NCBI GenBank assembly: GCA_030390025.1
Contig: CM059431.1
Coordinates: forward strand, 127,350,001 to 127,414,000
Reading direction: 5' to 3'
DNA: 64,000 nt
Source: Squalus acanthias
Lineage: Eukaryota
How positions within the stretch are numbered: position 1 is the stretch's first letter; every line of letters starts with the position of its first letter. The position numbers and the translations under genes were made by a program. This document shows, in pieces, positions 8,012 through 60,905 of the stretch. The notes beneath the pieces were generated by a model that was not told the DNA's origin, did not search any database, and saw only the letters and a program-made list of their open reading frames with translations.

Positions 8012-8020
8012 TTGCTTTGT

Positions 8021-15264: not shown

Positions 15265-15447
15265 AATAGATCGGTAGGAATTAATGGCTTTTGCAACCCA
15301 TTAAATACCTAACACAAGTTACAATTGAGTTCCAGAATCCATATATACAAATATGCTCTGTGGTGCTGGAATGGGTTTCCAGGCTTCCCTTACTAGAGTT
15401 TGAGAAAAGATGGATATGCCAGATTGGGCACTGCTACAAAGCAAGTT

Positions 15448-16171
15448 TTATTTTATTCATTCACTGGATGTGGGCACCGCTGGCAAGGCCAGCATTTATT
15501 GCCCATCCCTAATTGTCCTTGAGAAGGTGGTGGTGAGCTGCCTTCTTTATCTGCTGCAGTTCATGTGGTGAAGGTACTCTCACAGTGCTGTTAGGGAGGG
15601 ATTCCAGGATTTTGACCCAGTAACGATGAATGAACAGCGATATATTTCCAAGGCAGGATGGTGTGTGACTTGGAGGGGAACTTGGAGGTGGTGTTGTTCC
15701 CATGAGTCTGCTGCCCTTGTCCTTCTAGATGGTAGAGATCGTGGGTTTGGGAGATGCTGTCGAAGAAGCCTTGGCAAGTTGCTGCAAGTGCATCTTGTAG
15801 ATGGTACACATGATGGAGGGAGTGAATGTCTAAGTGGTGGATGGGCTGCCAATCAAGTGGGCTGCTTTGTCCTGGATGGTGTTGAGCTTCTTGATTGTTG
15901 TTGGAGCTGCACTCATCCAGGCAAGTGGAGAGTATTCCATCAAACTCCTGTCTTGTGCCTTGTAGGTGGCGGAAAGGCTTTAGGGAGTCAGGAGATGAGA
16001 CACTCGCTGCAGAATACCCAGCCTCTGACCTGCTCTTGTAGCCACAGTATTTATATGACTGGTCCAGTTAAGTTTCTGGCCAATGGTGACCCCAAGGATA
16101 ATGATGGTGGGGGATTTGATGATGGTAATGCCTTTGAATGTCAATGGGAGGTGATTAGACTCTCTCTTGTT
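15448..16171 (-). mobile_element. LINE family T, 3' fragment
   Basis: Same 3' tail and C-terminal coding region (HCSN.PRLLRQHLPNP) as the other copies. Confidence 0.9.
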
Positions 16172-20046: not shown

Positions 20047-20327
20047 TATTTTAGGGTTTTATTGTGATGTAGTTGAATAGTATGCCAATATTTACTGGCA
20101 GGCCTCATCTATAACTAATCACCACTTGCTGAGTTACTGAAGTGCAACCAGCAACCGTGAAAATGTACCCCACCAAGGTGCCCTCATGAGAGGACAGGAG
20201 AGCAAAATAACTGGCAAAATAAAAGCCTATTTGCATTGTTTCCTACTGCAGCTCTTTTTTTCATCAAGATATTAAAACTGTTGAACTCCTTACCTGCTTC
20301 AGTCTTCCCTTCTTCCTATAACATTCA

Positions 20328-28243: not shown

Positions 28244-30631
28244 TGTAGAATTCGCAATATAATCGCGATTTTATAAATAAGGAGAAAACACATAGTTTCG
28301 TTCAAACAGCTTTATTTCAGCAGAATGCTGTCAGGTTTTCAAAGTGGACACAAGCAGCCTGTAAAATGGCCGCCACGCCTCGTGGCAGAACATTCTAGAC
28401 TTTTCGATAAGCAGACAAGATGGCGTTCCAATAAACATTTGTGCGAGATCGATCAAGACTCAGCACATTTGAGATAATACACGAGACATTATGGGGGAAA
28501 AATTCAGCTGCTTGCGCCTCCCGTTAGCGCCTTAAGAGGGCGCTAATGGGGCGTAAAGCAGCTAACGCCCGGGCGCAGCGCCGCCCACGCCTCCCGAAAA
28601 ATTCAGTGGGAGGTTAGCGGCGGCGGCAGCCGGTAGCGCCCTGTGGCGCTGCGCCGCCGGCGATGACGTCATCGCCGTGCGCAGCACCCCGCTCGCGCCC
28701 CGGCCGTGATCTTCAGTCGCGCCCCCTGATTTACCGCCAGACGCTATGTCCGACGGGTTCAGGGAGGCGTACGTGCGGCCGGGGCGGCGATATTTAAAGG
28801 GGAGTTGGCAGGCGGCCATTTTTGTTGCTGGCCGCCTGCCAGCACCTGCCCCCGTTGCTGTCCCCGGCCCCCGTGAAGCCCCCCCACCGTGAAGTGCCGG
28901 CTGCGCTCCAAGAGCCCGGCACTTCTCTTGAGTGCCGGGCTCTTTTGCCGGCACTCCCGATCCCTGGGGGCCCAGCTGGGCCCCGGTTCGCGCTGCGCAG
29001 GGTCCCTCCCCTTTAAGAAGGGGAGAAAGGCCTGCAATACCGCGGCACGTAGCGCCAGGATATTCCCTCGCAGCGCCCCAAGAGGGATGCGGGGTGCTTC
29101 CAGTGGCGCCCCGCTTCCCTCTTGGGGCGCAACCACTGAAGTTCCGGCGCGGGGCCGCCATTTTTTTCGGGGCGCTAAAAGTCGCGCCCCGGCGAGGTTA
29201 GCGCCCCAAATGGGGCGCGACTCAATTTTTACCCCTATGGGTTTGCAGTATACACATAAATACTGAAATCGGTCTCCCAGGTGCGAATAAGGGCTATTGT
29301 ACCAAGCGATCAAGAACCCATCCAAAGACATTAATATGCAAAATCCCCACGACTCTACGATGAGAGAGCCGTTTGCGGGTAGTTACAGAAAACATTTGGA
29401 AGCCCCAAAACCCCTCCAGGGAGAGTACTGACCGGTTACACAATGGGAAAAATATTAACAGGTACTCAGACAGTTACAAGTATCACCGAAACCCATTAAA
29501 TGGAGATCACCCTATACAAGAAGTTTGAGCGCCAAAACCCTAACAAAAGAGAAGACATTAAGGTTGGGCGGGAAAAGAAGAGTTTCAGCACTATAACTGT
29601 AAGCTACAACCGTCCATCTTTCTCTTATCCTGTTGACTCCTTGCCGCTTGCCTCGTGTCTCTGCCTCTTGCAGCTCTTGCTGTTTGACTTGCTGAAAGAC
29701 TGTTGAACTTTCTGATCCGCCAGGATCAGCCTCGTGGCTTGCCGTGAAGATCTGTGTGGAACTGGGCTGTGAAGCCTTGAAACGGGCACACCATCCCGAG
29801 AAGTCGGTAAACGGTGTTGGCACCGAAGGCCCGAGATGAGATGAGATGAGATGAGATGAGAAGAGAAGAAGATGACAATACATATCGTCACGGTCAGTAA
29901 GCCCCGACCGTGCTCGATAAATCGGTAACTGCTACCCAACTAGCATCGGAAGACTATTCTTCGAATTTTATCGCATCAGTGCGAGGGCACAGGAAGACTC
30001 TTTTTTGAGTAGTGTCGGAACTCTGAGGACAACACAGATCTTCATGACAGCAGACAGTCCAGCCTGCTAGCCGGAGCAGAAACGAGTAAACAAGTGGGGT
30101 ACAGAGACCCCTGATCAACACGTGGGTGATCAGGTGCTGCGGTAAAAACATCCGAGCAGAGTTTTCGGAATTCTCCGAGTTATCACGAGTGGTGAGCATG
30201 AGTCTCGATCCTACAAATCTAGTTTAGAGCAGGTATTGATAGGGGAGGGTTTAAGTTTTAAGGATAACTGTAATGTGTGCCCCCATTTACGATGTGTCGT
30301 TCGTTCCTCGTTTCCCTGAAATTAGTTACATAACTGCGTGTAAGATTGTACTGTCATTAATCTGTGCTTATGACATGTATTTCGTAATCTTGAATAATAT
30401 GCAATAAAGATTTTCCATTTCGTACCATTCAACCGGGTCTACCTGAGTTTTCTCTCCATTATTGCTCTCGCATCTAAGTCCAGTGTCAGAACCGTAAGGG
30501 CGAGTGGGTCGAACCACTCACAGGTGTCTAGTGCTCCCAGACTGGCTGGAGACCAGAACAGGCAACAAGGCCTAACCTCGCACTAGCACCCAGGCTGAGC
30601 ACAGAGCCACAAATGGGTCAAAACCCTTACA
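28244..30631 (+). mobile_element. Solo LTR B (about 1.64 kb without its MITE)
   Basis: TG...CA ends. TSD TATC at 28240-28243 and 30632-30635. AATAAA at 30403-30408. Homologous to LTR A. (GAGAT)n at about 29833-29860. Confidence 0.92.
28493..29235 (+). mobile_element. GC/CpG-rich Harbinger-type MITE inside LTR B
   Basis: 15-bp TIR with 13/15 match (GGGGGAAAAATTCAG / CTCAATTTTTACCCC). 3-bp TSD TAT. Confidence 0.9.
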
Positions 30632-31007
30632 TATCCTCAGTGTGAAGACGGGACTTCTTCTCCACAAGTACTGTGCGGTGGTCACTCCTACCAATACTGT
30701 CATGGACAGATGGATCTTCCGTCTCCTCCTCTTCCTCCTTCTCCTCTTGTGGCTACTGAGCTTGACCCTCTGGCACAATTGCTGGTGGTAAAGGCAGATC
30801 TCTCAGGATCATCAGATTGTGGAGCATGCAGCAAATCATCACAAATGTGGACACCTTCTCGGCCAAATACTGCAGGGCACCTCCTGACTGGTCATGGCAT
30901 CTGTGCTTCTGTTTCAGGACCTCAATGGTCTGCTCGATGATATTCCTGGTGGCTGACTGGCTCTCATTGTATGAGTGCTCAGCTGGTGTCTGGGGGGTTT
31001 TCAGGGG

Positions 31008-32620
31008 AACATAAGAACATAAGAACATAAGAAATAGGAGCAGGAGTAGGCCAATCGGCCCCTCGAGCCTGCTCCGCCATTCAATAAGATCATGGCTGAT
31101 CTGATCCTAACCGCCAATCTACTATCTATCACAGAACCATCTCCTGCATCTAACAGAATTGCACACACGAAATAGGAGCAGAATCAGGCTACACGGTCCC
31201 TGGGCCCGCTCCACTACCCACAGGGCCATGACCGATCCGAACCTAGACTCATGTCCAAATTCCTGCCCGCTCCCCGTAACCCTTAATGCCCTTTACTTCT
31301 AGGAAACTGTCTATTTCTGTTTTAAATTTATTTAATGATGTAGCTTCTACAGCTTTTTGTGGCAGCATATTCCATGGACCTACCACCCTCTGAGTGAAGT
31401 AGTTCCTCCTCATCTCAGTTTTGAAAGAGCAGCCCCTTATTCTAAGACTATGTCCCCTAGTTCTAGTCTCACCCGTCATCGGGAACATCCTCCCCGCATC
31501 CACCCGATCCAAACCCTTCACAATCTTATATGTTTCAATAAGATCGCCTCTCATTCTTCTGAACTCCAATGAGTAGAGTCCCAATCTACCCAACCTCTCC
31601 TCATATGACCACCCCCTCATCCCCGGGATTAACCGAGTGAACCTTTTTTGCACTGCCTCGAGAGCAAGGATGTCTTTCCTTAAGTAAGGACACCAAAACT
31701 GTATGCAGTATTCCAGGTGCGGTCTCACCAATACCTTGTAGAACTGAAGCAATACCTCCCTATTTTTATATTCTATCCCCCTAGCAATGAAAGCCAACAT
31801 TCCATTTGCCTTCTTAATCACTTGCTGCACCTGCATACTAACCTTTTGAGTTTCGTGCACCAGGACCCCCAGGTCCCTTTGCACTTCAGTACTCTCCAGT
31901 TTCTTGCCATTAAAATAATAAATTGCTCTAGGATTTTTCCTGCCAAAGTGCATCACCTCACACTTTCCAGTGTTGTATTCCATCTGCCAAATCTCTGCCC
32001 ACTTACTTAGCCTGTCTATGTCCCCTTGCAGGTTTTTTATGTCCTCCTCACTCACTACTTTCCCTCCCATCTTTGTATCATCTGCAAATTTTGATATGTT
32101 ACACTTGGTCCCTTCCTCCAAATCGTTAATATAGATTGTAAAGAGTTGGGGACCCAGCACTGACCCCTGTGGAACACCACTAGTTACTGATTGCCAGTCT
32201 GAGAATGAACCATTTATCCCAACTCTTTGCTTTCTGTTAGATAGCCAATCCTCTATCCATGCCAGAATATTACCCCCAATCCCGTGATGTTTTACCTGAA
32301 TCAATAATCTTTTGTGTGGCACCTTGTCAAATGCCTTTTGGAAGTCTAAATACACTACGTCCACTGGTTCCCCTTTATCCACTCTATATGTTACTTCCTC
32401 AAAGAACTCCAGCAAATATGTCAAACATGACTTCACCTTCGTAAAACCATGCTGACTTTGTCCTATTAAATTATGATTATCCAAATGTCCTGTTACTGTT
32501 TCCTTAATAATGGACTCCAAAATTTTACCTACCACAGATGTTAGGCTAACCGGTCTATAGTTACCAGCCTTCTGTCTACTGCCCTTTTTAAATAAGGGTG
32601 TTACATTAGCAGTTTTCCAG
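31008..32620 (-). mobile_element. Young CR1 LINE, 5'-truncated, inside the transposase
   Basis: Uninterrupted 460-aa ORF 31249-32631 with FADD. (TTCTTATG)n tail. Splits the transposase motif WLMT|PLKTP. Confidence 0.95.
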
Positions 32621-33206
32621 TCATGAGCCATGGCATCAGAGGATATTCCTTGTCACCTAGTAGCCAGCCATGCACATTGCGTTGGGACTCAAAGATCTGT
32701 GGGACGGATGATTGCCTCATTATAAACGCATCGTGGCAGCTCCCTGGATAACAGGCATTCACCTGCTTAATTCGCTGCCGGTGGTCGCAGACAAGCTGTA
32801 CATAGATGGAATGGAATTAAATGAGGGGCTCGCATGGCCACATGTGTACCGTCAATGGCTCCCTGGACCATGGGGAACCCTGCAATCCTGTTAAATCCTA
32901 GTGCTCTCTGCCTCTGGTCTTCTCTGGCAATAGGGAATGATATGTAGTCATTCCTCAGAGCGTATAGAGCCGCAGAGACCTCACTTATGCAGAGGTGCAC
33001 AGAGCATTGTGAGATGTAACTTATATCACTTGTGGCAGCCTATAAGATTCCAGTAGCATAAAGGTTAAGTGCTACTGTGACCTTGACTGCCACAGGCAAT
33101 GCAGTCCTGGCTGTGCTGTGATGTCTGAGTCTTCGATCGACGAGACCAACTACCTCTGTAACAACCTCCTTGTTAAAGCGTAGCCTTCTTATGCACTGGT
33201 CTTCGG

Positions 33207-34592: not shown

Positions 34593-36234
34593 TAGAATCA
34601 TAGAATCATAGAATGGTTACAGCACAGAAGGCGGTCATTCGGCCAGTCGAGCCCATGCCGGCTCTCAGCTGGTCCCGCTCCCCCGCCATTTCCGCGTAGC
34701 CCTGCAAATTTTTTTCCTTCAATACTTATCCAATTCCCTTTTGAAAGCCAGGATTGAGTCTGCCTCCACCACCCTCTCAGGCAGTGCATTGCAGATCATA
34801 ACCACTCGCTGCGTAAAAAAGATTTTTGTCATGTCGCCTTTGGTTCTTCTGCCAATCACCTTAAATCTGTGTCCTCTGGTTCTTGACCCTTCCACCAATG
34901 GGAACAGTTTCTCTCTATCTACTCAGTCTAGACCCCTCATGATTTTGAACACCTCTATCAAATCTCCTCTCAACCTTCTTTGCTCTAAGGAGAACAACCC
35001 CAGCTTCTCCAGTCTATCAACGTAACTGAAGTCCCTCATCCCTGGAACCATTCTTGTAAATCTTTTCTGCACCCTCTCTAAGGCCTTCACATCCTTCCTA
35101 AAGTGCGGTGCCCAGAATTGGACACAATACTCCAGTTGAGGCCAAACCAGTGTTTTATAAAGGTTCATCATAACTTCCTTACTTTTGTACTCTATGCCTC
35201 TATTTATGAAGCCCAGTATCCCGTATGCTTTTTCAACCGCTTTCTCAACTTGTCCTGCCACCTTCAACGATTTGTGCACATATACCCCCAGGTCTCTCTG
35301 TTCATGCACCCCTTTTATAATTGTCCCCTTTAGTTTATATTGCCTCTCCTCATTCTTCCTACCAAAATGTAGCACTTCGCACTTTTCTGCGTTAAATTTC
35401 ATCTGCCACGTGTCCGCCCATTCCACCAGCCAGTCAATGTCCTCTTGAAGTCTATCACTATCCTCCTCACTGTTCACTATACTTCCAAGTTTTGTATCAT
35501 CTGCAAATTTTGAAATTGTGCTCTGTACACCCAAGTCCAAGTCATTAATATATACCAAGAAAAGCAGTGGGTACCGACCCCTGGGGAACATCACCGTATA
35601 CCTTCCTTCAGTCTGAAAAACACCTGTTCACCACTACACTCTGTTTCCTGTCACTTAGCCAATTTCCGTATCCATGCTGTCACTGTCCCTTTTATTCCGT
35701 GGGCTTCAACTTTGCTAGCAAGCCTATTATGTGGCACTTTATCAAACACCTTTTGGAAGTCCATGTACACTACATCAACCACATTGGCCTCAGCTACCAT
35801 CTCTGTTACCTCATCAAAAAACTCAATCAAGTTAGTTAAACACGATTTGCCTTTAACAAATCCCAGCTGGCTTTCCTTTAATTAATCTACACTATGTCCA
35901 AGTGACTGTTAATTTTGTCCCGGATTATCATTTCTAAAAGCTTCCCCACTACCGAGGTTAAACTGACTGGTCTGTAGTTGCTGGCTTTATCCTTGCACCC
36001 TTTTTTGAACAAGGGTGTAACATTTGCAATTCTCCAGTCCTCTGGCACCACCCCCGTATGAAGGAAAGATTATGGCCAGTACCTCTGCAATTTACACCCT
36101 TACCTCCCTCAGCATCCTAGGATGCATCCCATATGGTCCTGGTAACTTATATACTTTAAGTACAGCCAGCCTTTCTCATACCTTTTTATCAATTTTTATC
36201 CCATCTAGTATCTCAACTACCTCCTCTTTCACTA
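34593..36234 (-). mobile_element. CR1 LINE, ATTCTATG-tail subfamily, 5'-truncated
   Basis: ORF 34923-35594 (ISKFADDTKL, QLEYCVQFWAP). Tail reads TAGAATCATAGAATCATAGAAT on +. Confidence 0.95.
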
Positions 36235-36235
36235 T

Positions 36236-39153
36236 GGCCGGAATTTTCTGTACCTGGGCGGGTTGGTGTGGGTGGTCGCCATGGCGGGTCGCGACCCCAC
36301 TGCTCACTCCATTCCGCTGCTGAGAGCGACTTTCCGTTAATGGCGCCTATTAAGGCAGCCCTGCGCGTTACCCGGCCCTATTACTTGGTGTGGGTCTGAT
36401 GACATCATCGATGACGCGTTTTCAGCCGGGCTATTTAAAGGAGCCAGGGCCACATTGCATTTGCAGGTTGTTCTAGGAGTGTGCAGGCACTGTACTGCAG
36501 CATTGGAGTGTTCCAAATACTTGTACACATGACTGCACAGAGGCAGAGGGTGGCAACCACGTTCTCAGATGACTCCCTCTCTGCTTGTGGTGGGAGTGAG
36601 AGCATGCAGGGGGGTCCTCTTCCCTTCGGATGGGTGGAAGAGACCTCCCCATCAGACCAAAGGAGCCTGGCTCCAAATAGCAGAGGAGGTGAACAGCAGG
36701 GATGTGGTCAGGAGGACCTGGGTGCAGTGCCGGAAACACTTCAATGATCTCATTAGATCAGGAAAGGTGAGTACAAAACCACACTCAACTGCATCCTGCT
36801 GCATCTCTCATCACATCCCCCTCACTCTGCCTTCCCAAGCCTGCTCCTGCACATCATTACTCACACCAACATATCTTGCACATCTACCCATCCCTCTCTC
36901 TCTATCTACATTATCACATCCCCATCTTACTAACCACCCCTCACACTCATCCTCATCCTAATGCAATCATACCAACTAACAACACACAAGGAGGCCATTT
37001 GGCATTGGCACCCCACTCCGTCATAGTCTCCCTCTAAAGATGTTACCTATCCATTCCTTACACTCATTCCAACACTCTCACTCAAACTTCTCTTCTTTGC
37101 CTCCTTGCAGGAGAAGAGAGCCCACAATAAGAGGGAGAGGGAGAAACCCGGAGGTGGCCCTCCATCATTGGCCACCTTAACTGCAGCAGAGGAGGCCACC
37201 CTGGAAGTCTAAGGAGTCGCAGAGCAGCTGGAGGTGGGAGACAGAGAGAGGAAGATATCTCAGCAACCTGGTGACAGGATTACATCTCATACAGTCACAT
37301 GGCATAAAGCAGTCACTCATATGGGGACTGATGTCAGCAGCCAGAGAATGTTCATCATGTGCATAATGGTATTGTTACCCATTCTTGATATGACATTTCT
37401 AAATCAGCCCTTTACTCTTCCACAGGTCCATCAAGAGACTCCCACACTGTCCAGGAGGAAGAGGCAGACAACTCCTCAGAGGAGCCTCCAGCCTCTGATG
37501 GCGCAGCATCACCAGACATAAGTGCACCCAGCACCAGCGCAGATATGCACACCTCAGTGGGTCCCACGTGGGATAGAGTAGTGTTGTCACCTGGTGTTTC
37601 ACAAGTCACAAGTGAGCAAGAGCACATGGTGGAGACAGGGACAGCAGTGGAGACTCCTCGCTGGAGGGTGCAGGACGCTCCCAGCTCTACTCAGCTGCAT
37701 GCAGACGCTGAGCCTCAGAGGCCATCCAGAAAGAGGGTGATCCTGGAGGTGCAGCAAGAAGTGCAGGAAACTTTGACAGGTTTTGCGACCACGATGTGCA
37801 GAGAATGGAGGAGTCAATCTCCAACATGAGCACCACTGTGTCGCAGGCGATGGCGACTGTAGGCTGTTCCATGGAAAGTTTGGCCACCTGCATGGAGCAA
37901 CTAATGCGCCACTCACAGGGGCACCTGGAATCTATGGAGAATAGGTGGCTATCTATGGAGAATAGTTGGCAGACGTTCATAGACCTCCTCTCTAGGAAGG
38001 ATGTAAACATACACTTGGATCCTCATGGCCCCACTGCTGTGCAGCAAGGTGCTCTCCAACTCCTTGCTAGCAGGGAAGTGCGGGTGGCCCATGAAAGGAA
38101 TGATGGTGAGAGAGGACATGGAAGTGGGGGCTCCTCTCAAAGTGCTCACACTTCTCCCCCATTGCCTTCCCCTGAGTCAGAGCCCCACATGCCTCCTGGG
38201 ATCGCGATGGCTAAGTCTGCCCTCGTAGAGTCGCAGGAGGAGCAGACTTTGGCGGAGCCATCACAGGCTCCAAGACCCAGAGGTCAGCTGCCAAAAGGTT
38301 CTATGCAGTCACAGCAGGGAAGTGTTACCTCTGCTGAAGCCACAGGAGTAGCAACTCGTAGAAGCATAAGGGTAAGCACTTGGGTGTTTTAATAACTGTT
38401 TGTGTAAAGTTTCCATTAATGTGATGTCACAGCTAAATATTCTTATTTTCACCACTTTCCGGTCATGCTAATTGTTTCTGCAACTTTGGAAGTGGCTCAG
38501 TGAGTTGGAGTGAATGGTGAGACATAACGTTACCTTTAGCAATGGTGGTCAGTGTGAAAGGAATGGTCTGGACATTTTAGGGATGCGTTATGGTGTTGCT
38601 GCAGGGTGTTGGGAGCCTGGCGCAGCATCTGGCAGCCATATGGGTGTAATGCCTGAAGTTAAGTAAATCTGGCCATGATGAGGCCATCCCTGGCCTCCCG
38701 GGCAGCAATGTGCTCGGGTGGTGGTGGGATCTGGACCGCAGGTTCCTCCTCCTCCTCGTCTTCCACCTGATGCTCCTCCCCCTCCTGCTCCTCCTCCTCT
38801 GAAGAGGCTGTGCGCTCAGTGCCTTGCTCCTCATGCAGCGCTAATCGTCGCTGCTGTGCTCTGTTGTGCAGGGCGCAGCGGACCACGACGATTCTGGAGG
38901 CCCTGGCTGGTGCATACTGAAGGGCTCCTCCAGATCTGTGAAGACATCTGAAGCGCATTGTCAGCAGGCCTATTATCTGTTCTATGACACATCTGGTGGA
39001 AATGTGGCTTTCATCATATCTCTACTCACCCTCCAGGTTTTGTGCTGCGCTAATTTAAATTAGCAGGCTGCCTGCGCTATTATTTCGGACAGCCGTTAAC
39101 TTCGGCCCACGGTGGCACTGGCAGATTTCCGGCCTACTCCAATTTCTAGGCCC
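36236..39153. mobile_element. Internally deleted Harbinger: three-exon Myb gene (+) and transposase 3' end (-)
   Basis: Ends GGCCGGAATTTT / AATTTCTAGGCCC. Exons 36529-36766, 37111-37270 and 37426-38392. ORF 38659-38958 reads RFRCLHRSGGALQY...CALHN...ARDGLIMARF. Confidence 0.85.
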
Positions 39154-40130: not shown

Positions 40131-40204
40131 CAAGAAAATTAATTTTGCTATTCCTCTAGTTTGGAAACTCACATAGAATCAAAAACATTCCCAGTGTCTA
40201 ATGT

Positions 40205-41499
40205 TACAAAAGGTAAATCATGCTTGACTAATCTACTGGAATTTTTTGAGGATGTAACTGGTAGAATAGATAAGGGAGAACCAGTGGATGTGGTGTATTT
40301 GGACTTTCAGAAGGCTTTCGATAAGGTCCCACATAAGAGATTGGCGTGCAAAGTTAAAGCACATGGGATTGGGGGTAAGGTACTGACTTGGATAGAGAAC
40401 TGGTTGGCAGACAGGAAGCAAAGAGTTGGAATAAACAGGTCTTTTTCCGAGTGGCAGGCAGTGACTAGTGGGGTACCGCAGGGATCGGTGCTAGGACCCC
40501 AGTTATTCACAATATATATTAATGATCTAGATGAGGGAACTAGATGTAATATCTCCAAGTTTGCAGATGACACAAAGCTGGGTGGGCGTGTGTGTTGTAA
40601 GGAGGATGCAGAGAAACTCCAGTATGATTTGGACAAGTTGGGTGATTGGGCAGATGCATGGCAGATGCAGTATAATGTGGATAAATGCGAGGTTATCCAC
40701 TTTTGTGGCAAAAACAGGAAGGCAGATTATTATCTGAATGGCAATAGATTGGGAAAAGGGGAAGTGCAACGAGACCTGGGTGTCCTTGTGCACCAGTCGT
40801 TGAAGGTAAGCATGCAGGTGCAGAAGGCGGTTAAGAAGGCAAATGGTACGTTGGCCTTCATAGTGGGAGGATTCGAGTACAGGAGCAAGGATGTCTTGCT
40901 GCAGTTGTACAGGGCCTTGGTGAGACCACACCTTGAGTATTGTGTGCAGTTTTGGTCGCCTTATCTGAGGAAGGATGTTCTTGCCATGGAGGGAGTGCAG
41001 AGAAGATTCACCAGACTGATACCTGGGATGGCAGGAATGACGTATGAAGAGAGATTGGGACGATTGGGCTTGTATTCGCTAGAGTTTAGAAGAATGAGAG
41101 GGGATCTCATTGAAACTTATAAAATTCTAACAGGACTAGACAGACTAGATGCAGGAAGGATGTTCCCGATGGCGGGGGAGTCCAGAACCAGGGGTCACAG
41201 TCTAAGGATAAGGGGTAAGCCATTTAGGACTGAGATGAGGAGGAATTTCTTCACCCAGAGAGTGGTGAACCTGTGGAATTCTCTACCACACAAGGCAGTT
41301 GAGGCCAATTCATTCAATATATTCAAGAAGGAGTTAGATATATTTCTTAAGGCTAAAGGGATCAAGGGATATGGGGAGAAAGCAGGGACAGGGTACTGAA
41401 TTTGGATGATCAGCCATGATCTCATTAAATGGCGGAGCAGGCTCGAGGGGCCAAATGACCTACTCCTGCTCCTATCTTCTATGTTTCTATGTTTCTATG
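40205..41499 (+). mobile_element. Young CR1 LINE, 5'-truncated
   Basis: Open ORF to 41399 with FADD. (TTTCTATG)n tail. Confidence 0.95.
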
Positions 41500-47217: not shown

Positions 47218-49866
47218 ATAAGAACATAAGAACATAAGAAATAGGAGCAGGAGTAGGCCAATCGGCCCCTCGAGCCTGCTCCGCCATTCAATAAGATCAT
47301 GGCTGATCTGATCCTAACCTCAAATCTAAAGAACACAAGAAGTAGGAGCAGGACCCGGCCACTCAGCCCCTGGGCCCGCTCCGCCACCCACAGGGCCTTG
47401 ACCGATCCGAACTCAGCCTCATGTCAAATTTCCTGCCCACTCACCGTAACCCCTAATTCCCTTTACCTCTAGGAAACTATCTATTTCTGTTTTAAATTTA
47501 TTTAATGATGTAGCTTCCACAGATTCCTGGGGCAGCAAATTCCACAGACCTACTACCCTCTGGGTGAACAAGTTTCTCCTCATCTCAGTTTTGAAAGAGC
47601 AGCCCCTTATTCTAAGATTATGCCCCCTAGTTCTAGGTTCATCCATCCTTGGGAACATCCTTACCGCATCCACCCGATCAAGCCCCTTCACAATCTTATA
47701 TGTTTCAATAAGATCGCCTCTCATTCTTCTGAACTCCAATGAGTAGAGTCCCAATCTACTCAACCTCTCCTCATATGTCCACCCCCTCATCCCCAGGATT
47801 AACCAAGTGAACCTTCTTTGTACCTCCTCGAGAGCAAGTATGTCTTTCCTTAAGTATGGACACCAAAACTGTATGCAGTATTCCAGGTGCAGTCTCACCG
47901 ATACCTTATATAACTGCAGCAATACCTCCCTGTTTTTATAATCTAACCCCCTAGCAATAAAAGCCAACATTGCGTTGGCCTTCTTGATCACCTGCTGCAC
48001 CTGCATACTAACTTTTTGATTTTCTTGCACTAGGACCCCCAGATCCCTTTGTACTGCAGTACTTTCCAGTTTCTCGCCATTAAGATAATAACTTGCTCTC
48101 TGATTTTTCCTGCCAAAGTGCATAACCTCACATTTTCCAATATTGTATTGCATCTGCCAAATCTCCGCCCACTCACCCAGCCTGTCTATATCCCCTTGTA
48201 GGTTTTTTATGTCCTCCTCACTTTCTACTTTCCCTCCCATCTTTGTATCATCTGCAAACTTTGATATGTTACACTCGGTCCCCTCCTCCAAATCGTTAAT
48301 ATAGATTGTAAAGAGTTGGGGACCCAGCACCGACCCCTGCGGAACACCACTGGCTACTGGTTGCCAGTCCGAGAGTGAACCATTTATCCCAACTCTCTGC
48401 TTCCTGTTAGATAACCAATCCTCCACCCATGCCAGAATACTACCCCCAATCCAGTGATTTTTTATCTTGAGCAATAATCTTTTATGTGGCATCTTGTCGA
48501 ATGCCTTCTGGAAGTCTAAATACACTACGTCCACTGGTTCCCCTTTATCCACCCTGTACGTTATGTCCTCAAAGAACTCAAGCAAATTTGTCAGACATGA
48601 CTTCCCCTTCATAAAGCCATGCTGACTTTGTCCTATTAAATTATGTTTATCTAAATGTTCCGTTACTGTCTCCTTAATAATAGACTCCAAAATTTTACCC
48701 ACCACAGATGTTAGGCTAACTGGTCTATAATTTCCAGCCTTCTGCCTACTACCCTTTTTAAATAAGGGTGTTACATTAGCAGTTTTCCAATCTGCCGGGA
48801 CCTTTGCTGAGTCCAGGGAATTTTGGAAAATTATTACCAAAGCATCCACAATCCCTACTGCCACTTCCCTCAAGACCCTAGGATGTAAGCCATCAGGTCC
48901 AGGGGATTTATTCACCTTGAGTCCCATTATTTTACTGAGTACCAATTCCTTAGTGATTTTAATCGTATTTAGCTCCTCCCCCCCAGAGCCCCCTGTTTGT
49001 CCAGTGTTGGGATATTCTTAGTGTCCTCTACCGTAAAGACTGAAACAAAATATTTGTTCAGCATTTTTGCCATCTCCATGTTTCCCACCATTAATTTCCC
49101 GGTCTCATCCTCTAAGGGACCTACGTTTGCCTTAGCCACCCTTTTTCTTTTTATATAACTATAGAAACTCTTGCTATCTGTTTTTATATTTTTTGCTAAT
49201 TTATTTTCATAATCTATCTTCCCTTTCTTAATCAATCCTTTAGTTACTTTTTGCTATCTTTTGAAGACTTCCCAATCTTCTATCCTCCCACTAAGTTTGG
49301 CTACCTTATATGTCCTTGTATTTAGTCGGATACTATCCTTAATTTCTTTACTTAGCCACGGATGGCTGTCATTTTTTTTACACCCTTTTTTCCTCAGTGG
49401 AATATATATTTTTTGAAAGTTGTAAAATAACTCCTTAAATGACCACTGCTCATGTACCGTCTTACCCTTTAATCTATTTTCCCAGTCCACTTTAATCAAT
49501 TCTGCTCTCATACCATCATATTCTCCTTTATTCAAGTTCAGTACGCTTATTTGAGAACCAACCTTCTCACCCTCTAATTGGATATGGAATTCAACCATGT
49601 TATGGTCACTCATCCTTAACTAGGACATTATTAATTAATCCTGACTCATTACACAGGACCAGGTCCAAGGTTGCTTGCCCCCTTGTAGGATCAGTTACAT
49701 ACTGCTCAAGAAATCCATCCCTAATACACTCAATAAACTCTTCCTCAAGGCTGCCCTGCCCAATTTGATTTGTCCAGTTAATATGATAGTTAAAATCCCC
49801 CATAATTATAGCTGTTCCCTTATTACATGCCCCAACTATTTCCTGATTAATACTTCTTCCAGCAGA
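47218..49866 (-). mobile_element. Young CR1 LINE, longest copy (EN C-terminus plus RT)
   Basis: ORFs 49606-49881 (IIMGDFN, TLDLVL), 49254-49613 (SDH), 48969-49235 and 47419-48945 (508 aa, FADD). Same subfamily as 31008-32620. Confidence 0.95.
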
Positions 49867-51889: not shown

Positions 51890-53036
51890 TATTTTTATAT
51901 TTTTCCTGGGGATGTGGGTGACACTGCCAAAGCCATATTTATTGCCCATCCTTAGTTACACTGATAGGTGGTGTTGGGCCTAGTCTTTGAACTGCTGCAG
52001 TCCCAGTGGTGATGGTACTCTCACAATGTTGTTAGGTAGGAAATTCCAGGATTTTGACATGAGATGAAAGAACAGCAATATATGTTCAAGTCAGAATAGT
52101 GTGTGACTTGGAAGGGAGCCTGCGGGTGATGGTGTTCCCATATTGAGAAGCATCCGGCAAGGCGCCGAACACCTCGAGTCTCTTCGCTGGGAGCAAGCGG
52201 AAGCCAAGCGCAAACAGTGGAAGGAGCACACGTCAACCCAAGCACCCCACCCACCCGCCCCTTCAACCACCATCTGCCCCACCTGTGACAGAGACTGTAG
52301 GTCCCGCATTGGACTCATCAATCACTTGAGAACTCATTTTTAATGTGGAAGCAAGTCATCCTCGGTTCCGAGGGACTGCCTAAGAAGAAGAAGAAGATAT
52401 TACTGCTGTTCTTCTTCTCGGCGGTAGAGGTTGTGGAGCTGGGAGGTGATGTTGAAGTAAGCTTTGTTTCTGCAGTACATCCTGTTCATACTGCAGCTGT
52501 GTGCCGTTGCTGGAAGGGGATGGATATTTGATTCAATGGCAGAAGTGCCAATCAAGTAGACTGCTTTATCTTTAATGATGTCAAGCTTCTTGACAGTAGT
52601 TGGGTCTTCACCTATCCAGGCAAATATGATTATCCCATCACACTCTGATGTGGGCCTATTATATGGTGGAGAGGTATTGAGCACTCAAGAGGTGAGCCAA
52701 GTTGCAGAGTACCCAGCCTATACCCTGCTCTTGTAGTGATAGTTTGGATATGAGGTCTCAGTAATGGTCGTGCCATTGGAGGCCGGGGGAGTTGGTTGGG
52801 CCTCTTCTTGGAAATGCTCATTACCTCACAATTGTGTTATATGAATATTACCTGCCACTTATCAGCCCAAGCCTCAGTGTTGTCCAGATCCTGCTGTAGG
52901 CTGGTATTAGTGCTTAATTATTGGAGGAATTGTGAATGGAACTGGACACTGTATAATCATCAATGAACAGTCCCACTCCTGACCTTATGACAAAAGGAAG
53001 TTCATTGATGAATCAGCTGAAGATGTTTGGGACAAG
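51890..53036 (-). mobile_element. Older diverged LINE family T copy, split by an RTE fragment
   Basis: Tail GGATGTGGGTGACACTGCCAAAGCCATATTTATTGCCCATCC on +. KKLDIIKDKAVYLIG motif. Confidence 0.8.
52145..52396 (+). mobile_element. RTE-clade LINE 3' end
   Basis: C-terminal zinc finger CPTCDRDCRSRIGLINHLRTH, short UTR and (AAG)n tail. ATATT duplicated at 52140 and 52397. Confidence 0.8.
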
Positions 53037-53293
53037 GAAAGTGGCCGGGGCTATGATGATTGGCTACTGACAAACCTGCCCACACATCCTTGGCAGCAAC
53101 AGTTGGGAAAGAAGCTGCATCAGCTGGATTACGTAAGTATCCTGTTGTCATGTTACACTGCTCATGGGCTTTTATGCCTATTTTGAGCTGTGTCGGCTGC
53201 TGTACCTGACTAGAAAAATTGTGGAAAGTTATTTTTTTGCAGTTGCAAGATAATCTCTGCCCAGCAGCTTGTGCACAGATATTCTCTGGGAAC

Positions 53294-54343
53294 ATGGGTG
53301 TGCTGCTCGGTCTGCCAATGGGATTGGAGGGTGAGAAGGAGGAAGAGCAGTCAGTAAGAGTGCACAGACTAACAGCTGCTGAGAGAAGCGGGTGAAGGAG
53401 GGGCAAGTGCAGGAGGCCATGTGAATGTACAGGAACAGAACATTTTACCTCCAGTTAACTAAGGAGCAGTGTGCCTGGTGGGCTCTGCTTCACCAGAGAG
53501 GCTGTGACAGAGCTATGCCACCTGTTTCAGCTGAATTTCCATGCTTCAGGGTCATTCTAGAGTGCAACGGATGACATTAGCAACATCAGTCAGTTTGCAG
53601 TGCATTCCAGCATCAAGTAGGTTATGGATGTGCTCTTTGCCAAGGCTTACGAATTCATTACCTTCCATATAAAGGTAGCAAAGCAGGAAGACAGATCTCT
53701 GGGCTCCTCCAGGATCGCAGGGTTCACCCAGGTGCAGGACATCATTGGCTACACCCACATAGGCTTGTGTGCTCCACTAAGACCCTGGAATATATTTAAA
53801 CAGGAAGGGCTTTCACTTACTGAACGTGCAGCTGATGTGCGATGGCAGGAATTACATTGTGCAGGTCCGTGCCCAGTTTCTTGGCAATTGTCATGATCCC
53901 TTCATCCTGCAACAGTTCTAAATCCCTCCCCTATTTCACGCAGACCATTGGGTGTCAGGCTGACTGCCTGGGGACATTGGGTATGCCCCGAACACGTAGC
54001 TCATGACAGCTGTCAGAAACCGGAGGAGTGCTACAAACAGGACCATGCCTCTACCAGAGATCTGATTGAGCAATCCATTGGCATTCTAAAACAAAGGTTC
54101 CACTGTTTGGATTGGTCAGGAGGCGCCCTGCAGGAAAGCCCCGAAAGAGTCTCCGGATTAGCTTTAGTTTGCTGCATGCTCCACAACTTGGCTCTGCAAA
54201 GGGGGCAGCCCATAAAGCCATGTGGAGAGAAAGGAGTAGAGAAGCAGGAAGAGCATCAGGATGCCGAGGAAGTGCAAGGGCCACCAGTTCTGCCAGCTGC
54301 CAGAGCTGTGCACCAGCAGATCATCGAGGAACACTTTGGTTGA
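53294..54343 (+). pseudogene. Decayed Harbinger transposase
   Basis: RIAGFTQVQDIIGYTH, STRDLIEQSIGILKQRFHCLDWSGGALQ and CCMLHNLA motifs. Confidence 0.85.
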
Positions 54344-55115: not shown

Positions 55116-56794
55116 TAGCCTAGCTAGCTGTCTGGTACAAACACTGGTAGAGGCACTGGTTGAGGGGCTGACGGGGGAGTAGTGTGCTGTCATCCTGAGA
55201 GAGGACAGTATGTGTCTCTTCCATGGGGCCATTGCCACCCCCCTGTAGCTGCAGCTCCGCACTCCCACTGCTGTGTGTGAGAACAGACAGCTGGAGTGAT
55301 GTGACAGTTTGAAAGACCCTATCCATGCTCTCCTTCATGCTTAGCCAGCTGGAGGAGACGTCAGCGCTGACATCAAGGGCTCCATAACTGAGTGATGCTA
55401 CAGCAGTGTGCATAGAGGTAACCACATGCTCCATGGTTTGGTTGCCAAGCATGATGACCCCACACAAGTTGGAGCTGAACTCTTCCATGCCGTACAACAT
55501 TGTGCGCATCTCGCTGGCAGGCAGTCCAATGCATCGAGCAATTGTTGGTCCACAAGCATCAACCTTCTTCTATAGACTGGGCCCTAAAAATCAATATCTG
55601 TGCTTTCTGTGGAAGGATGCATGCTTGCTATTCTGGCTAGCTCGTTCCTGTGTGATCCTATGTCTCTGCCCTTGCTCTTGCACACTTGCGCTCAGGTGAA
55701 TCTCCTTGTGCAGACCACTATAACTGACCTTCTAAGCTATGCAGCTTGCCAATTTCTGAGCTGGTGCCTGCAAGGGTAAGGTCAAGTGACAATGTATCTT
55801 CAGGAGGACTGTCCTTCTCTTCAACTATTGCAGTTGGACTTGTTACTTGTAATAGACCTGGAAAGAGAGACAAATGACAATGGTTAGCAGTTAGCGGTAA
55901 GGGGTAGCAGATGAGTAGCAGCTCAAAGCTGCACCACTTTGTCAAACAGAGTGTGAGAGAGACAGAATTCAGTGAGAATAGAAAAGGAGGGTAAGATGGC
56001 CACACAGTCTGCAGAGCATATCCTCCGATCTCACCAGTTGCGATGTTTCGGACTTTCTCTCTGCTTACTTCTTCAATTGCGGCCTCTTCCTTTGGGGACA
56101 ACACTTGTAGGGTTGGTGGCCTCCCTCCTGTCTGATCCTCTTATTGTGTGCCAGTTTGTCCTGCAAAAAGAAGGGGAGCGAGATAGCATGTGGCCTGCTG
56201 AAGAGCTGTGAAGATGTGCATGTCAGGGTAGAAAAGTGTGGATGTGTGTGAAAGATGTCAGGTGTGAGGAGGTGAGGGGAGTAATTGTGAGGACGGGAGG
56301 AGATGCAGAGTGTGCAAGTCGCAGCAGAACGTGGTACAGTGAAATGTGCTGCTGTGATTGGAGGAGAGTGATGAGAAGCGGGGGAGGGATGTACTGTCTA
56401 GATAACATCTTATAGTTCTGAAGTCATCTCACACTCCTTAGGCTAAAAATTCATTATAGACAAGAAATGGGCAGTGTTTAGACTAAAAAAGGTTAAGCTG
56501 TGCCAGCTGAAAATCGTCTAGGATGCACGCAAAATACGTGCTCACTCCTCATTAAAATGATTGCAGTCATGCTTCTAGTCTAAAAACTCAAGCTCATTGG
56601 TGTTACACTGAAAAGCTGGACCAATATCGAGGGCAGACTAATTGCAAGTAATGATTGCCACGGGTTCTTTTCACTAATTAAAGTGGAGGTTAATTGATGC
56701 TGCAGCACCTCATTGTCAGGATTGTTGGGTGTGCAGCTGCCCCAACAACCATAAGAAGAAGGTCGAGGAGAAGGAAGAGTTCTTTACAAATCTG

Positions 56795-59700
56795 ATGGCA
56801 GATCATTGCTCCAGGGAGAGAGCCCGAAGGTTTTCCGATGAAGCTTTGGAGGTATTGGTTTTCGCACTGGAGAGAAGGCGGGCTGTCGTGTACCCACCAA
56901 CTGGCAGGAGGCCCTCGTCACAAGTGTGCCACACTATGTGGAGGGAGGTAGCACACCATGTCACGGGCAGCACTGTGGTCCCCAGGACCCACACCCAGTG
57001 CAGGAAGAGGTTTAACGACCTCACACGGGTGGTCAAGGTGAGTGAAAGCTTCAACAAATGCTACATACCACCATCTCAACCACAGCGGAATGGTAGCATA
57101 GTGGTTATGTTACTGGACTAGTAATCCAGAGGCCCCGTGGAGACGAAGATCCGTCTTCACACTGAGGACACCCTCCATCATGTTATGTGGCACTACCACC
57201 ATGCTAAATGGGATAGATTCAGAACAGATCTAGCAGCTCAAAACTGGGCATCCATGAGTCGCTGTGGGCCATCAGCAGCAGCAGAATTGTATTCCACCAC
57301 AATCTGTAACCTCATGGCCCGGCATATCCCTCACTCTACCATTAACATCAAGCCAGGGGACCAACCCTGGTTCAATAAGGAGTATGGAAGAACATGCCAG
57401 GAGCAACACCAGGCGTACCTAAAAATGCATTTCCAACCTTTGGAGGCTGCAACACAGGACTACATGCAAGCTAAAAAATGGAAGCAGCATGTTCTAGACA
57501 GAGCTAAGCGATCCCACAATCAACAGATCAGATCAAAGCTCTGCCGTCATGCCACATCCAGTCGTGAATGATGGTGGACCATTAAACAACTAACTGGAGC
57601 AGAGGCTCCATGAATATCCCCATCTTCAATGATGGTGGAGCCCAGCACATGAGTGCAAAAGACAAAGCTGAAGTATTTGCAACCATCTTCAGCAGAAGTG
57701 CTGAGCGATGATCCATATTGGCCTCCTCCTGAGGTCCCCACCACCACAGAAGCCAGTCTTCAGCCAATTTGATTCACTCCACGTGATATCAAGAAATGGC
57801 TGAGCGCACTGGATACAGCCCTGACAACCTCCCCGCTGTTCTGCTGAAGACTTGTGCTCCAGAACTAGCCGCACCTCTAGCCAAGCTGTTCCAGTACAGC
57901 TACAATACTGGTATCTATCCGACAATGTGGAAAACTGCCCAGGTATGTCTGTCCACAGAAAGCAAGACAAATCCAATCCGGTGAATTACCGCCCCATCAG
58001 TCTACTGTCAATCATCAGCAAAGTGATGGAAGGTGTCGTCGACAGTGCTATCAAGCGGCACTTACTCACCAATAACCTGCTCACTGATGCCCAGTTTGGA
58101 TTCTGCCAGGACCACTCAGCTCCAGACCTCATTACAGCCTTGGTCCGAACATGGACAAAAGAGCTGAATTCCAGAGGTGAGGTGAGAGTGACTGCCTTTG
58201 ACATCAAGGCAGCATTTGACTGAGTGTGGCATCAAGGAGCCCCAGTAAAACTGAAGTCAATGGGAATCGGGGGAAAACTCTCCACTGGCTGGAGTCATAC
58301 CTAACACAAAGGCAGATGGTTGTGGTGGTTGGTGGACAATCATCACAGCTCCAGGACATCACTGCAGGAGTTCCTCAGGGCAGTGTCCTAGGCCCAACCA
58401 TCTTCAGCTGCTTTATCAATGACCTTCCATCCATCATAAGGTCAGAAGTGGGGATGTTCGCTGATGATTGCATAGTGTTCAGTGCCATTCGCAACTCCTC
58501 AGATAATTAAGCAATCCATGCCCGCATGCAGCAAGACCTGGATGACATTCAGGCTTGGGCTGATAAGTGGCAGGTAACATTCGCGACACACAAGTGCCAG
58601 GCAATGACTATCTCCAACAAGCGAGTATCTAACCACTGCCCCTTGACATTCAATGGCATTACCATCGCCGAATACCCCACCATCAATATCCTGGGGGTCA
58701 CCATTGACCAGAAACTTAACTGGACCAGCCACATAAATACTGTGGCAACAAGAGCACGTCACAGGGTGGATATTCTGCGGCTAGTGTCTCACCTCCTGAC
58801 TCCCCAAAGCCTTTCCACCATCTACAAGGCACAAGTCAGGAGTGCGATGAAATACTCTCCACTTGCCTGGATGAGTGCAGCTCCAACAACACTCAAGAAG
58901 CTCAACACCATCGAAGACAAAGCAGCCCGCTTGATTGGCAACCAACCACCAGCTTAAGCATTCACTCTCTCCATCACCAGCGTACCGTGGCTGCAGTGTG
59001 TACCATCTACAAGATGCACTGCAGCAACTCGCCAAGGCTTCTTCGGCAGCACCTCCCAAACCCGCGACCTCTACCACCTAGAAGGACAACGGCAGCAGGC
59101 ACATGGGAACACCATCACCTCCAAGTTTCCCTCCAAGTCACACACCATCCTGACTTTAAAGTGTATCACCATTCCTTCATCATCGCTGGGTTAAAATCCT
59201 GGAAGTCCCTCCCTAACAGCACTGTGGGAGTACCTTCACCACACGGACTGCAGTAGTTCAAGAAGGCGGCTCACCACTACCTTCTCGAGGGCAACTAGGG
59301 ATGGGCAATAAATGCTGGCCTTGCCAGTGACGCTCACATCCCATGAACAAACAGAAAAAAGTCTTCACACACTGCTTAATGCATCACACCCTCAGCACTC
59401 ACCCACCAACAATCTCTACCTATCAACACTCACACCCACATCTCACACCTTGCACACAATGACAGCTATTCAACTTTGGAAGGCACATCACCCAAACAGA
59501 TTGCACCACACTCACACACACACTTTCCTTTTTCTTGCAGGCCAAGGTGGCGCATAATCACCAGGAGCAGGAGCAGACAGGCGATTATGGGGGTGAAGCC
59601 CAGATTGAAGAGCTGTGCCAGCTGGAGACGAGCGTGCTGGAGATCATTGATCGCCAGGTCGACAGTACTGTTACCACCGGCGACATTGACCCCATTGGGG

Positions 59701-60905
59701 ACAACAACGCTATGTTCATTCCTAATCCTTCTTCTCACATCCCACATCCCCCTCAGGCCACAATCTTTTCTCACACTCAAGCTACTTATGCTGTAAGCAT
59801 TTCTGTCTTCCTGCCCCCTTCCCCTCACCATAACCCGACTCTTGTGCCTTTCTCTTTCAGATAACCAGCATGAGAGCGAGGGGGGAGAAGAGGAGGAAGA
59901 AGAAGATGCCGTGCCACTGCATCTCTCACTCACAGACATCAGCTCAGAAACTGGCACTGTTCTTTAGAGACTTCTGGAGTAGCAGGGTCTGCACAGGATG
60001 AGGCACCAGGCACGAGTGGGCTGCAGCAAGGCCGGGGGAAAGGGCAGCTCGGGGGCCAGCTCCCCGGATAGCGGTTTGGGGGCGTGCGAGTTCTGCTGCA
60101 CAGGACTCAGATGAGGACCTCGATGGGGAGGCCTTCAGAAGAAGGGTGATGGGCATGCACACAGAAATGATAGGTGCAATGGCAAGGCTGCTAGAGAGCC
60201 TCTCCGCAATAGCAAGCTGCATGGCGGAGTCTGCCTCCAACATTGCACGGGGCTCTGCTCAGAGCTTGGAGCCCAGGATTTCCAGTCTGGAAATGATGGT
60301 ACACCCCCAGAGAGACCGTGGTGACTCAGACGTGATGGCTCGCATGATGAGCGATGTCCCAGCTTCCATTGCAGCACAAGCGGAAGCGACCCAACGTCTT
60401 CGTGCTGAAGCGGAAGCTCAGGCTGCTCTCATGCAGTCTCAGCGTGATGCCACCCAAGTTCAGACTGCTGCCATCCTGGCTGGGTTTACCTCTATCGACA
60501 AGGGCTTTCACGGTGTCGCAGCAGCCCAGCAATCTGTGCTCCAACAGATTGCTAGGAATGCTGAGGCGCCGCCCTGGAGGAGTGGCATTGTGTCGGTTGA
60601 GCAGGAAGGATGACAGCATTCCTACTTCCACCACTGCCACTCCGCCATTGCCCTTGCAGCTGCCTGTCAGCCAGCCAGCCCAGACTGCTGCCGCACATGC
60701 CGAGGTGATGCAGTCTACAGCCAGGCCTTCTCGGTCCACAGCTGGTCGAGGTCATCCTGCAAGGCTATCTGAAGTCTCCCGCATGGAAACTCAGCAGCCT
60801 TTCACCAGCCATGCTGCAGCTGCTGCAGGAGTACTGTGTAGGAGCACTAGAGTAGGAAAAGACATACGAACGACAGGCACTAAGGAATTGCACAAGGGTG
60901 ATTAG
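56795..60905 (+). pseudogene. Harbinger Myb/SANT-like DNA-binding gene, three exons
   Basis: Exon 1 56795-57037 (RERARRFSDEALEVLV...WREVA...QCRKRFNDLTRVVK, GTGAGT donor). Exon 2 59541 to about 59709 (donor mutated). Exon 3 from 59861 has an acidic tract and an Ala/Gln coiled coil. Confidence 0.85.
57086..59360 (+). mobile_element. LINE family T with tRNA-like head, inserted in Myb intron 1
   Basis: Head at 57086-57134 (A-box TAGCATAGTGG 57094-57104) is joined to the EN C-terminus, RT (GMFADDC) and the shared tail. The flanks rejoin to match the intron at 21380-21460. Confidence 0.92.

Follow-up and report, generated by a model that had tools for sequence, protein, structure and literature searches.

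A retrotransposon family of Squalus acanthias with a tRNA-like head, an endonuclease and reverse transcriptase frame, and a coding strand poor in T-runs

Introduction

Why should the sense strand of a long interspersed nuclear element (LINE) almost lack runs of four T? The question is raised by a decayed element, copy E, located in a 64,000-nt stretch of the Squalus acanthias genome (assembly GCA_030390025.1, contig CM059431.1, positions 127,350,001 to 127,414,000). The whole stretch is called the window throughout. Copy E belongs to a repeated DNA family, here denominated family T, which has further copies in the window and elsewhere in the genome. Runs of four or more T (T4+) terminate vertebrate RNA polymerase III (Pol III), and shorter or interrupted T-runs act as weak terminators. 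An earlier note on this DNA had connected the paucity of such runs with a transfer RNA (tRNA)-like head carried by the family, and had proposed selection for Pol III read-through across a coding region of about 3 kb. tRNA-like promoters are normally found on tiny parasites, the short interspersed nuclear elements (SINEs); here a sequence of this kind sits on a 3.3-kb element encoding its own copying enzymes.

Results

The 5' end of family T

Genome searches were all made in the assembly from which the window is taken (3.7 Gb, 3882 contigs), and the copies fetched are the top scorers for queries drawn from copy A of the window or from copy L034. Many full-length elements, measuring about 3.25-3.3 kb from head to tail, are found among the twenty genome regions fetched. 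At the 5' end they feature a head, probably derived from a tRNA, with candidate boxes A and B, and then a body of about 270 nt. In an alignment the heads of these copies all start at the same point and the flanks found upstream are unrelated; the copies therefore begin at the head. When the junction between body and LINE was used as query (351 nt from copy A), all the 40 scored genome matches, out of 9049 first-look candidates, spanned it. As a control for bias, a second query was restricted to LINE sequence (copy A nt 351-750). It retrieved 29 other loci, corresponding to 13 independent copies, as 17 loci share an upstream flank of about 970 nt at 96.6-99.1% identity and were collapsed to one segmental duplication. 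The SINE-type body is located upstream in 12 of the 13 independent copies, and the head is reached in six. In copy A coordinates, 5' starts fall at or before position 30, within the head (six copies), at 59-72 (three), at 256-324 (three) and at 357 (one). An alternative upstream LINE sequence was not found in any of the 13. The tRNA-like head, with the SINE-type unit of about 345 nt, is the native 5' end of an endonuclease (EN) and reverse transcriptase (RT) encoding LINE of about 3.3 kb, genome-wide.

The duplicated loci (L054-L056, L058-L063 and L065-L072, mostly on contig C9 of G000) all carry the one full-length insertion, 970 nt or more of its upstream flank included. This segmental-duplication family, present at 17 or more places, inflates the apparent copy number of family T.

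Box A of the head matches its consensus exactly, and in most heads box B agrees with its own at 9 of 11 positions. Box A starts about 8-9 nt past the point where the copies stop aligning with the flanks, and the start of box B lies about 64 nt beyond that of box A. Internal A and B boxes close to the 5' end, and the absence of shared T4+ runs inside the element, are the features of a type-2 Pol III unit, which family T is accordingly predicted to form. Neither ARAGORN nor Rfam at gathering thresholds gave any match in the window, and a search of 11 loci (46 kb) gave no Rfam match at E<=1. The tRNA alignment of Rfam covers the 5' two-thirds of the L034 head, with a long insertion. Matches of the head to RAGATH-34 (26.1 bits, against a threshold of 60.7) and to SNORA26 are weak and were taken as chance.

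Family T as a LINE

Family T features one long frame of about 977 codons, predicted to encode an apurinic-type endonuclease (APE) and a reverse transcriptase. Two pieces of the copy E frame match RVT_1 with 33.0 and 39.9 bits (cut-off 29.6), and a third falls below the cut-off with 16.9. The database homologues at E<=1e-10 are 875. They measure about 930-990 aa and combine EN and RT domains; the best is 44% identical and bears PF00078. Their source names are generic, such as "mobile element jockey". By tblastn, residues from about 15 to 336 of the homologues P0001, P0003, P0008 and P0010 (PF14529/PF03372) match copy A nt from about 404 to 1244, and the EN domain starts directly after the SINE-type body. 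In an alignment of 24 copies described below, the EN frame has no shared stop between core positions 322 and 3253. Upstream, core positions 262-321 (about 7700-7760 on the minus strand of copy A) ancestrally include, in the EN frame, an ATG directly followed by a stop and an ATG separated from a stop by one codon; the stop at core position 319 closes a three-codon mini-frame. A 166-aa frame of copy A running from the body into the EN region found a single database match among 19 candidates, the 121-aa eukprot protein P0121 (59% identity over 33% of the query).

Copies B, C and D of the window are truncated at the 5' end and share the 3' end; genome copies start at positions ranging from 4 to 357. 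An A-run marks the 3' end in the contig loose ends, among those listed. To judge from the RT, the EN placed in the same frame, the 5'-truncated copies and the common 3' end, family T is an APE-type non-LTR (long terminal repeat) retrotransposon. It is not a SINE: SINE2 elements are non-coding and 100-700 bp long, whereas family T measures about 3.3 kb and has an EN+RT frame. The deleted form of family T does qualify as a SINE.

The linked SINE

An abundant SINE of the same genome consists of the 5' unit of family T, head and body, and of the last 70-125 nt, approximately, of the LINE. In Logan contigs from four runs, depth is very high over copy A and about 10-20 on the flanks. Thousands of contig joints connect positions 5706-5779 to positions 7667-7731 of copy A, skipping the open reading frame (ORF), and therefore represent the ordinary SINE form. 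The same body-to-tail adjacency is found in loci L026 and L027.

T-runs on the sense strand

The recount of T4+ runs on the sense strand gave none in copies E, C and B, one in copy D (26642-26645) and two in copy A (7272-7275 and 7729-7732), exactly as the earlier note had it. All these runs are private. The one in copy D occurs in that copy only, as had been claimed, and at 7731 most other copies bear a different letter when contigs are aligned on copy A. The statement that AAAA is common on the same strand holds as well, since 10-12 A4+ runs are found in each of the long window copies.

At the family level, 24 copies (five from the window and 19 of the 20 fetched) were aligned over 3317 core columns; L036, a segmental duplicate of the L033 group, was left out. 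The core contains 13 T4+ runs in 11 clusters. Ten clusters are confined to single copies, and one, at the extreme 3' end, is found in 3 of 15 copies. None of the runs is common to at least half of the copies, as against 15 shared A4+ runs. The majority state of each column was used for counting only. T accounts for 0.198 of the columns, and TT was observed 96 times against 131 expected. TTT occurs 7 times, against 25.9 expected for independent, identically distributed letters (P = 1.2e-5) and 14.0 under a first-order model (P = 0.03). T4+ runs, of which 4.1 are expected with independent letters, are missing altogether (P = 0.017), and the suggestion that the family consensus might be free of them is thus borne out. 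A-runs are at expectation (AAA 72 against 71.2, A4+ 15 against 14.3). The depletion is strand-specific, as A-runs on the sense strand are T-runs on the antisense strand. Avoidance of endonuclease targets and homopolymer slippage of the RT were considered as causes of the purge, and rejected because A-runs are at expectation.

The depletion becomes steeper as the run grows. TT is found at 0.72-0.84 of expectation, with TG and TC enriched, and the majority states give 0.50 for the ratio P(T|TT)/P(T|T), single copies 0.41-0.63. L081, 93.9% identical to L082, is one of the two copies of least divergence in the set and has no T4 in 3030 nt and 5 TTT against 23.5 expected, TTT being the most depleted of the 64 trinucleotides. 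The stop-free frame of copy C (Table 1) includes only two TTT, and its phenylalanine codons TTT and TTC are in the ratio 1:10.

Shuffling synonymous codons keeps amino acids and codon usage fixed. Against such shuffles TTT is depleted in L034 (587 codons; 3 against 10.3, P<0.001), wC (2 against 7.4, P=0.008), L042 (2 against 5.6, P=0.011) and L035 (1 against 4.5, P=0.025), and is not significantly so in two short 5' pieces. TT pairs astride codon boundaries (codon-boundary T|T) number 8 in L034 against 19.3 expected (P<0.001). AA/AAA, CC/CCC and GG/GGG are not comparably depleted. Avoidance of TT and TTT, steeper as the run grows, exceeds what base composition, codon usage and amino acid sequence account for. 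The absence of T4 is by itself weak evidence.

CR1 elements and relatives of family T

Five ORF fragments of CR1-like LINEs found in the window provide a control from the same genome. Each contains 3-5 sense T4+ runs, as the earlier note had observed, and the observed-to-expected ratio (o/e) of TTT is 1.08-1.50. By synonymous shuffle no T-run depletion was found in the CR1 frames (for example TTT 28 against 28.4, and 26 against 28.0). These frames are C-poor (13-15% C), and GG and GGG exceed synonymous shuffles, with z up to 5.0.

Relatives of family T were taken from a single metagenome scan, which gave 80 loci; 79 were analysed, L135 being left out because it contains N. In the 79, o/e ranges are 0.47-1.83 for sense T4 (mean 1.15), 0.56-1.57 for TTT and 0.86-1.23 for TT. 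None has zero T4+ runs, and relatives with a T share of 0.23-0.25 still have a T4 o/e of 0.56-1.41. Synonymous shuffles were applied to the 61 relatives with a stop-free frame of at least 450 codons. TTT reaches 0.71 or more of its synonymous expectation in these, and 0.27-0.29 in family T. All 61 have a P(T|TT)/P(T|T) of 0.80-1.16. Codon-boundary T|T falls no lower than 0.54 of the synonymous expectation in relatives and stands at 0.31-0.61 in family T. The T-run purge is unique to family T among the sampled relatives and the co-resident CR1 elements, and the comparison that the earlier note had called for comes out in its favour.

A pair of boxes A and B upstream of the frame was found in none of 47 relatives, by a scan that is weak and catches just 3 of 12 decayed family T heads. 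ARAGORN found no tRNA in 51 relative loci, a result that is uninformative, as it misses the family T heads too.

Copies in the window

The window copies of family T and the CR1 control frames are listed in Table 1.

Table 1. Family T copies and CR1-like control frames in the window (window positions)
Feature	Position	Strand	Description
Copy E	57086-59360	+	Decayed copy; start of the tRNA-like head joined straight to LINE sequence, which sets in at the end of the EN region
Copy E, head part	57086-57135	+	First 50 nt or so of the tRNA-like head; box A present, box B absent (BLAST against copy A and full-length genome copies)
Copy E, LINE body	57136-59360	+	Linker, RT domain, C-terminal region, 3' untranslated region (UTR) of about 50 nt, A-rich end; no sense T4+
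Copy A	5650-8020	-	Near-full-length, from head to tail, with body and EN; the RT bears private internal deletions
Copy A, head and SINE-type body	7668-8011	-	5' segment of about 345 nt, common to LINE and abundant SINE
Copy B	15447-16171	-	5'-truncated 3' part, 725 nt; no sense T4+
Copy C	18384 to about 20050	-	5'-truncated; no sense T4+
Copy C, frame	18653-20050		Stop-free, 466 codons
Copy D, 3' part	26056-28243	-	One private sense T4
Copy D, 5' part	30634-30717	-	5'-truncated, headless; parted from the rest of D by an insertion of about 2.4 kb
Copy F	51892-53046	-	Old divergent relative, 66-77% identical to copy E
CR1-like frame	11175-12954	+	Control
CR1-like frame	31252-32652	-	Control
CR1-like frame	34926-35627	-	Control
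CR1-like frame	40143-41396	+	Control
CR1-like frame	47422-49017	-	Control

Comparison of the window with itself detects the head in copies A and E only. In copy E, nucleotides 1-50 of the head are joined to about nt 1045 of the element, and a three-frame translation of the body reveals frameshifts and stops. The junction is spanned by none of 39 other scored genome matches, which begin at its LINE side and are 93-98% identical. Copy E is therefore a private internal-deletion derivative of family T.

Copy E lies between exon-like segments (56678-57040 and 59540-59860) and looks intronic: GTGAGT follows position 57039, and a pyrimidine tract and CAG precede position 59541. Several similar frames occur elsewhere in the window (for example at 23688-24074 and 36533-36958) and finish in a similar peptide. 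These may be part of a repeated gene, or of one associated with a DNA transposon. Three frames, 30756-31106(-), 38662-39021(-) and 53897-54340(+), contain motifs that are presumably those of PIF/Harbinger-type transposases; the 5' end of copy D adjoins one of these frames. The insertion that splits copy D (28244-30633, about 2.4 kb) includes a very GC-rich segment at about 28560-29200 and long stop-free frames on both strands.

Copy F has one sense T4+ run against 3.15 expected from dinucleotide shuffles. It was tried as a headless relative for control and dropped, as its top genome matches are just 67-81% identical and no distinct family could be traced.

Discussion

Transcription of family T

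The explanation that fits the data best, circumstantial and about as likely to be right as wrong, is that full-length family T would be transcribed by Pol III and that selection would act against terminators. The full-length template RNA would originate, at least in part, from Pol III acting at the internal promoter of the head, as for the SINE. Elements gaining T-run terminators in the 3 kb downstream would give no full-length RNA, and their lineages would be lost. Pol III transcription is favoured because it joins the native head, the strand-specific and run-length-dependent purge, and the absence of the purge in CR1 elements and relatives. Pol III read-through selection over the coding region, as first proposed in the earlier note, is backed by the architecture of the head and by the TTT and run-length data, and not by the T4 shuffle test. 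The paucity of T4 had also been put forward as independent support for the tRNA-head hypothesis; the structural side of that hypothesis is shown by the genome copies, the SINE-type body lying upstream of the LINE in 12 of 13, and T4 alone is weak evidence. A larger proposal is that family T may be an autonomous 3.3-kb LINE, driven by Pol III from a tRNA-derived promoter and purged of T-runs along the whole coding strand, with the SINE as its internal-deletion derivative. This is put forward a little more tentatively, its chances falling just short of even. If true, a Pol III-driven LINE would blur the divide between LINEs and SINEs, and cap-independent translation of the frame of about 977 codons would be needed. 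A major SINE family could then have arisen simply, by internal deletion of its own LINE.

A number of results weigh against Pol III transcription. An uncapped transcript of Pol III has no evident route to translation, and family T thereby raises a question about the translation of such transcripts; in the 24-copy alignment no shared in-frame ATG is found between the stop at core position 319 and the EN domain. Passages of PMC10886601 hold that LINEs use RNA polymerase II (Pol II), and that the processivity of Pol III limits element length. The Rfam tRNA model gives 19.5 bits on the L034 head, under the threshold of 29 (E = 0.064 in a 161-nt search), and the A and B box scan passes just 3 of 12 decayed heads, the figure given above for its sensitivity. 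No T-run terminator is found at the element's own 3' end. The T4 data are not significant against shuffles. From dinucleotide shuffles 0.8-2.3 T4+ runs are expected per copy (P 0.14-0.60). Synonymous shuffles, the control suggested in the earlier note, give 1.2-1.5 expected runs per piece of 317-587 codons, with P(0) of 0.18-0.21 (1.36 runs and 0.19 for the frame of copy C); for pieces tiled over the ORF about 2.8 runs are expected, with P(0) about 0.06. On that control the T4 claim, taken alone, fails to reach significance, P being about 0.06-0.2. At the lowest o/e found in relatives, 0.47, family T would lack T4+ runs with a probability of 0.15. Depletion weakens over the last third of the element, towards the 3' end, and TTT is not significantly depleted in 3' pieces (L040, 6 against 8.9; L032, 5 against 6.5). 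TA is also low (0.61-0.69), and part of the bias is thus not run-specific. In six of the 61 relatives (L086, L107, L119, L120, L131 and L157, all metagenome contigs) codon-boundary T|T is depleted, with z from -3.1 to -4.3, T4 is kept and no head was detected; some avoidance of T|T therefore occurs in the LINE clade where no head was detected. The association has n = 1, as a single headed lineage is available, and the relatives come from other organisms, CR1 being the sole control from the same genome.

Much of this evidence would suit transcription by Pol II, with head and body as a 5' UTR that the LINE has in common with the SINE by descent or capture, and with the purge due to some other selection at the RNA level. 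U-tract or AU-rich destabilising motifs, proteins binding U-tracts, downstream elements of premature polyadenylation, and nucleases cutting at UU and UA are all candidates. TA is depleted along with TT, the depletion starts at TT and TTT, below the canonical T4 terminator, and the six depleted relatives have no detected head; the consensus printed in PMC10886601, in the passages cited, is that LINEs use Pol II. Selection on dinucleotides is a poor match for the additional fall from P(T|T) to P(T|TT), seen in none of the 61 relatives, and CR1 elements of the same genome exhibit no T-run depletion. Pol II transcription moreover leaves unexplained why full-length copies start exactly at a head with boxes A and B. 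We regard it as the main rival, unlikely and nonetheless deserving serious weight. That the exact start reflects processing, rather than transcription, is improbable. The head would then be an RNA-handling signal, for example for RNase P or RNase Z, freeing the LINE RNA from read-through host transcripts, and the paucity of T-runs would be unrelated. Copies starting at about position +1 of a tRNA-like sequence fit an RNase P cut as well as a Pol III start, and copy E lies in an apparent intron. Processing of this kind is hard to reconcile with a head that keeps neither the 3' acceptor strand nor the full cloverleaf, scores as said with Rfam and is missed by ARAGORN, and it leaves the strand-specific, run-length-dependent purge unexplained.

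It could be objected that no selection on T-runs is to be invoked at all, and that they are few simply because a T-poor, C-ending codon usage and the amino acid composition were inherited by chance in this lineage. T is found at only 13.7% of first codon positions, and the lack of T4+ runs is unremarkable under the codon-preserving shuffles just mentioned. TTT and codon-boundary T|T remain depleted in L034 with amino acids and codon usage fixed; family T falls outside all 79 relatives, and all 61 tested by shuffle, including those with a T share of 0.22-0.26; and A-runs are at expectation. A by-product is for these reasons rather improbable, slightly more so than processing. Least credible of all is that copies A and E each gained a head in a one-off template switch between LINE RNA and SINE or tRNA RNA, of the U6-L1 type, and that the head is no feature of the family. 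The head/LINE junctions do differ between the two, and that of copy E is unique among 40 scored matches. The A-type junction is found in 40 of 40 matches and upstream of 12 of 13 independent LINE 5' regions, and full-length copies from head to tail are numerous, which leaves this account very little room. A family-wide artefact of template switching is refuted for the A-type architecture, and was retained only as a possible origin of the deletion of copy E.

Comparison with known systems

Family T and its SINE presumably resemble HER1 and HE1, respectively. U6-L1-type chimeric retrocopies, which arise by template switching of the RT, are one-off events with variable junctions. They resemble family T in that a small-RNA sequence is fused 5' to a LINE, and a similar event could account for the copy E junction; they differ in that the junction between head and body of family T is constant genome-wide. 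A further bipartite non-autonomous derivative of a LINE is found in the ingi/RIME pair.

For sharks and rays, a table in PMC3747384 lists tRNA-derived HE1 SINEs together with the LINE HER1. As in the tail-sharing SINE/LINE pairs of Okada and Ohshima, a tRNA-headed SINE bears the last 70-125 nt, approximately, of family T, a LINE of the type recognised via the 3' tail, with an A-rich end. Unlike those pairs, the autonomous LINE itself bears head and SINE body at the 5' end. The literature searched gave no account of an autonomous LINE headed by a tRNA-derived sequence; Repbase, Dfam and subscription journals lay outside the search, and an earlier description is possible.

Passages of Kojima 2018 (PMC5786205) report SINEs whose bodies stem from 5' UTRs of RTE and Vingi LINEs, with a small-RNA head added to the deleted LINE by template switching. 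In these bipartite derivatives, as described there, the SINE consists of the 5' end and of the 3' end of a LINE, linked by an internal deletion, which is also the organization of the family T SINE. The full-length LINEs of that account are headless, and use of Pol II is assumed for them, whereas in family T the head is found on the full-length LINE.

TRIMp3 elements (Cassandra, Helenus and Ajax), as presented in parts of PMC10886601, are non-autonomous LTR elements of 311-1263 bp with Pol III promoters derived from small RNAs. The same parts argue that their autonomous partners need Pol II, because the processivity of Pol III is limiting. Family T is similar to TRIMp3 in being a non-SINE retroelement with a tRNA- or 5S-derived internal promoter, in this case a predicted one; it differs in measuring 3.3 kb and in encoding EN and RT. 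Family T, a high-copy LINE, may serve as a testable counter-example to the view, held in textbooks and expressed in those parts of PMC10886601, that LINEs rely on Pol II only and that, owing to the processivity of Pol III, its promoters occur solely on short, non-autonomous elements.

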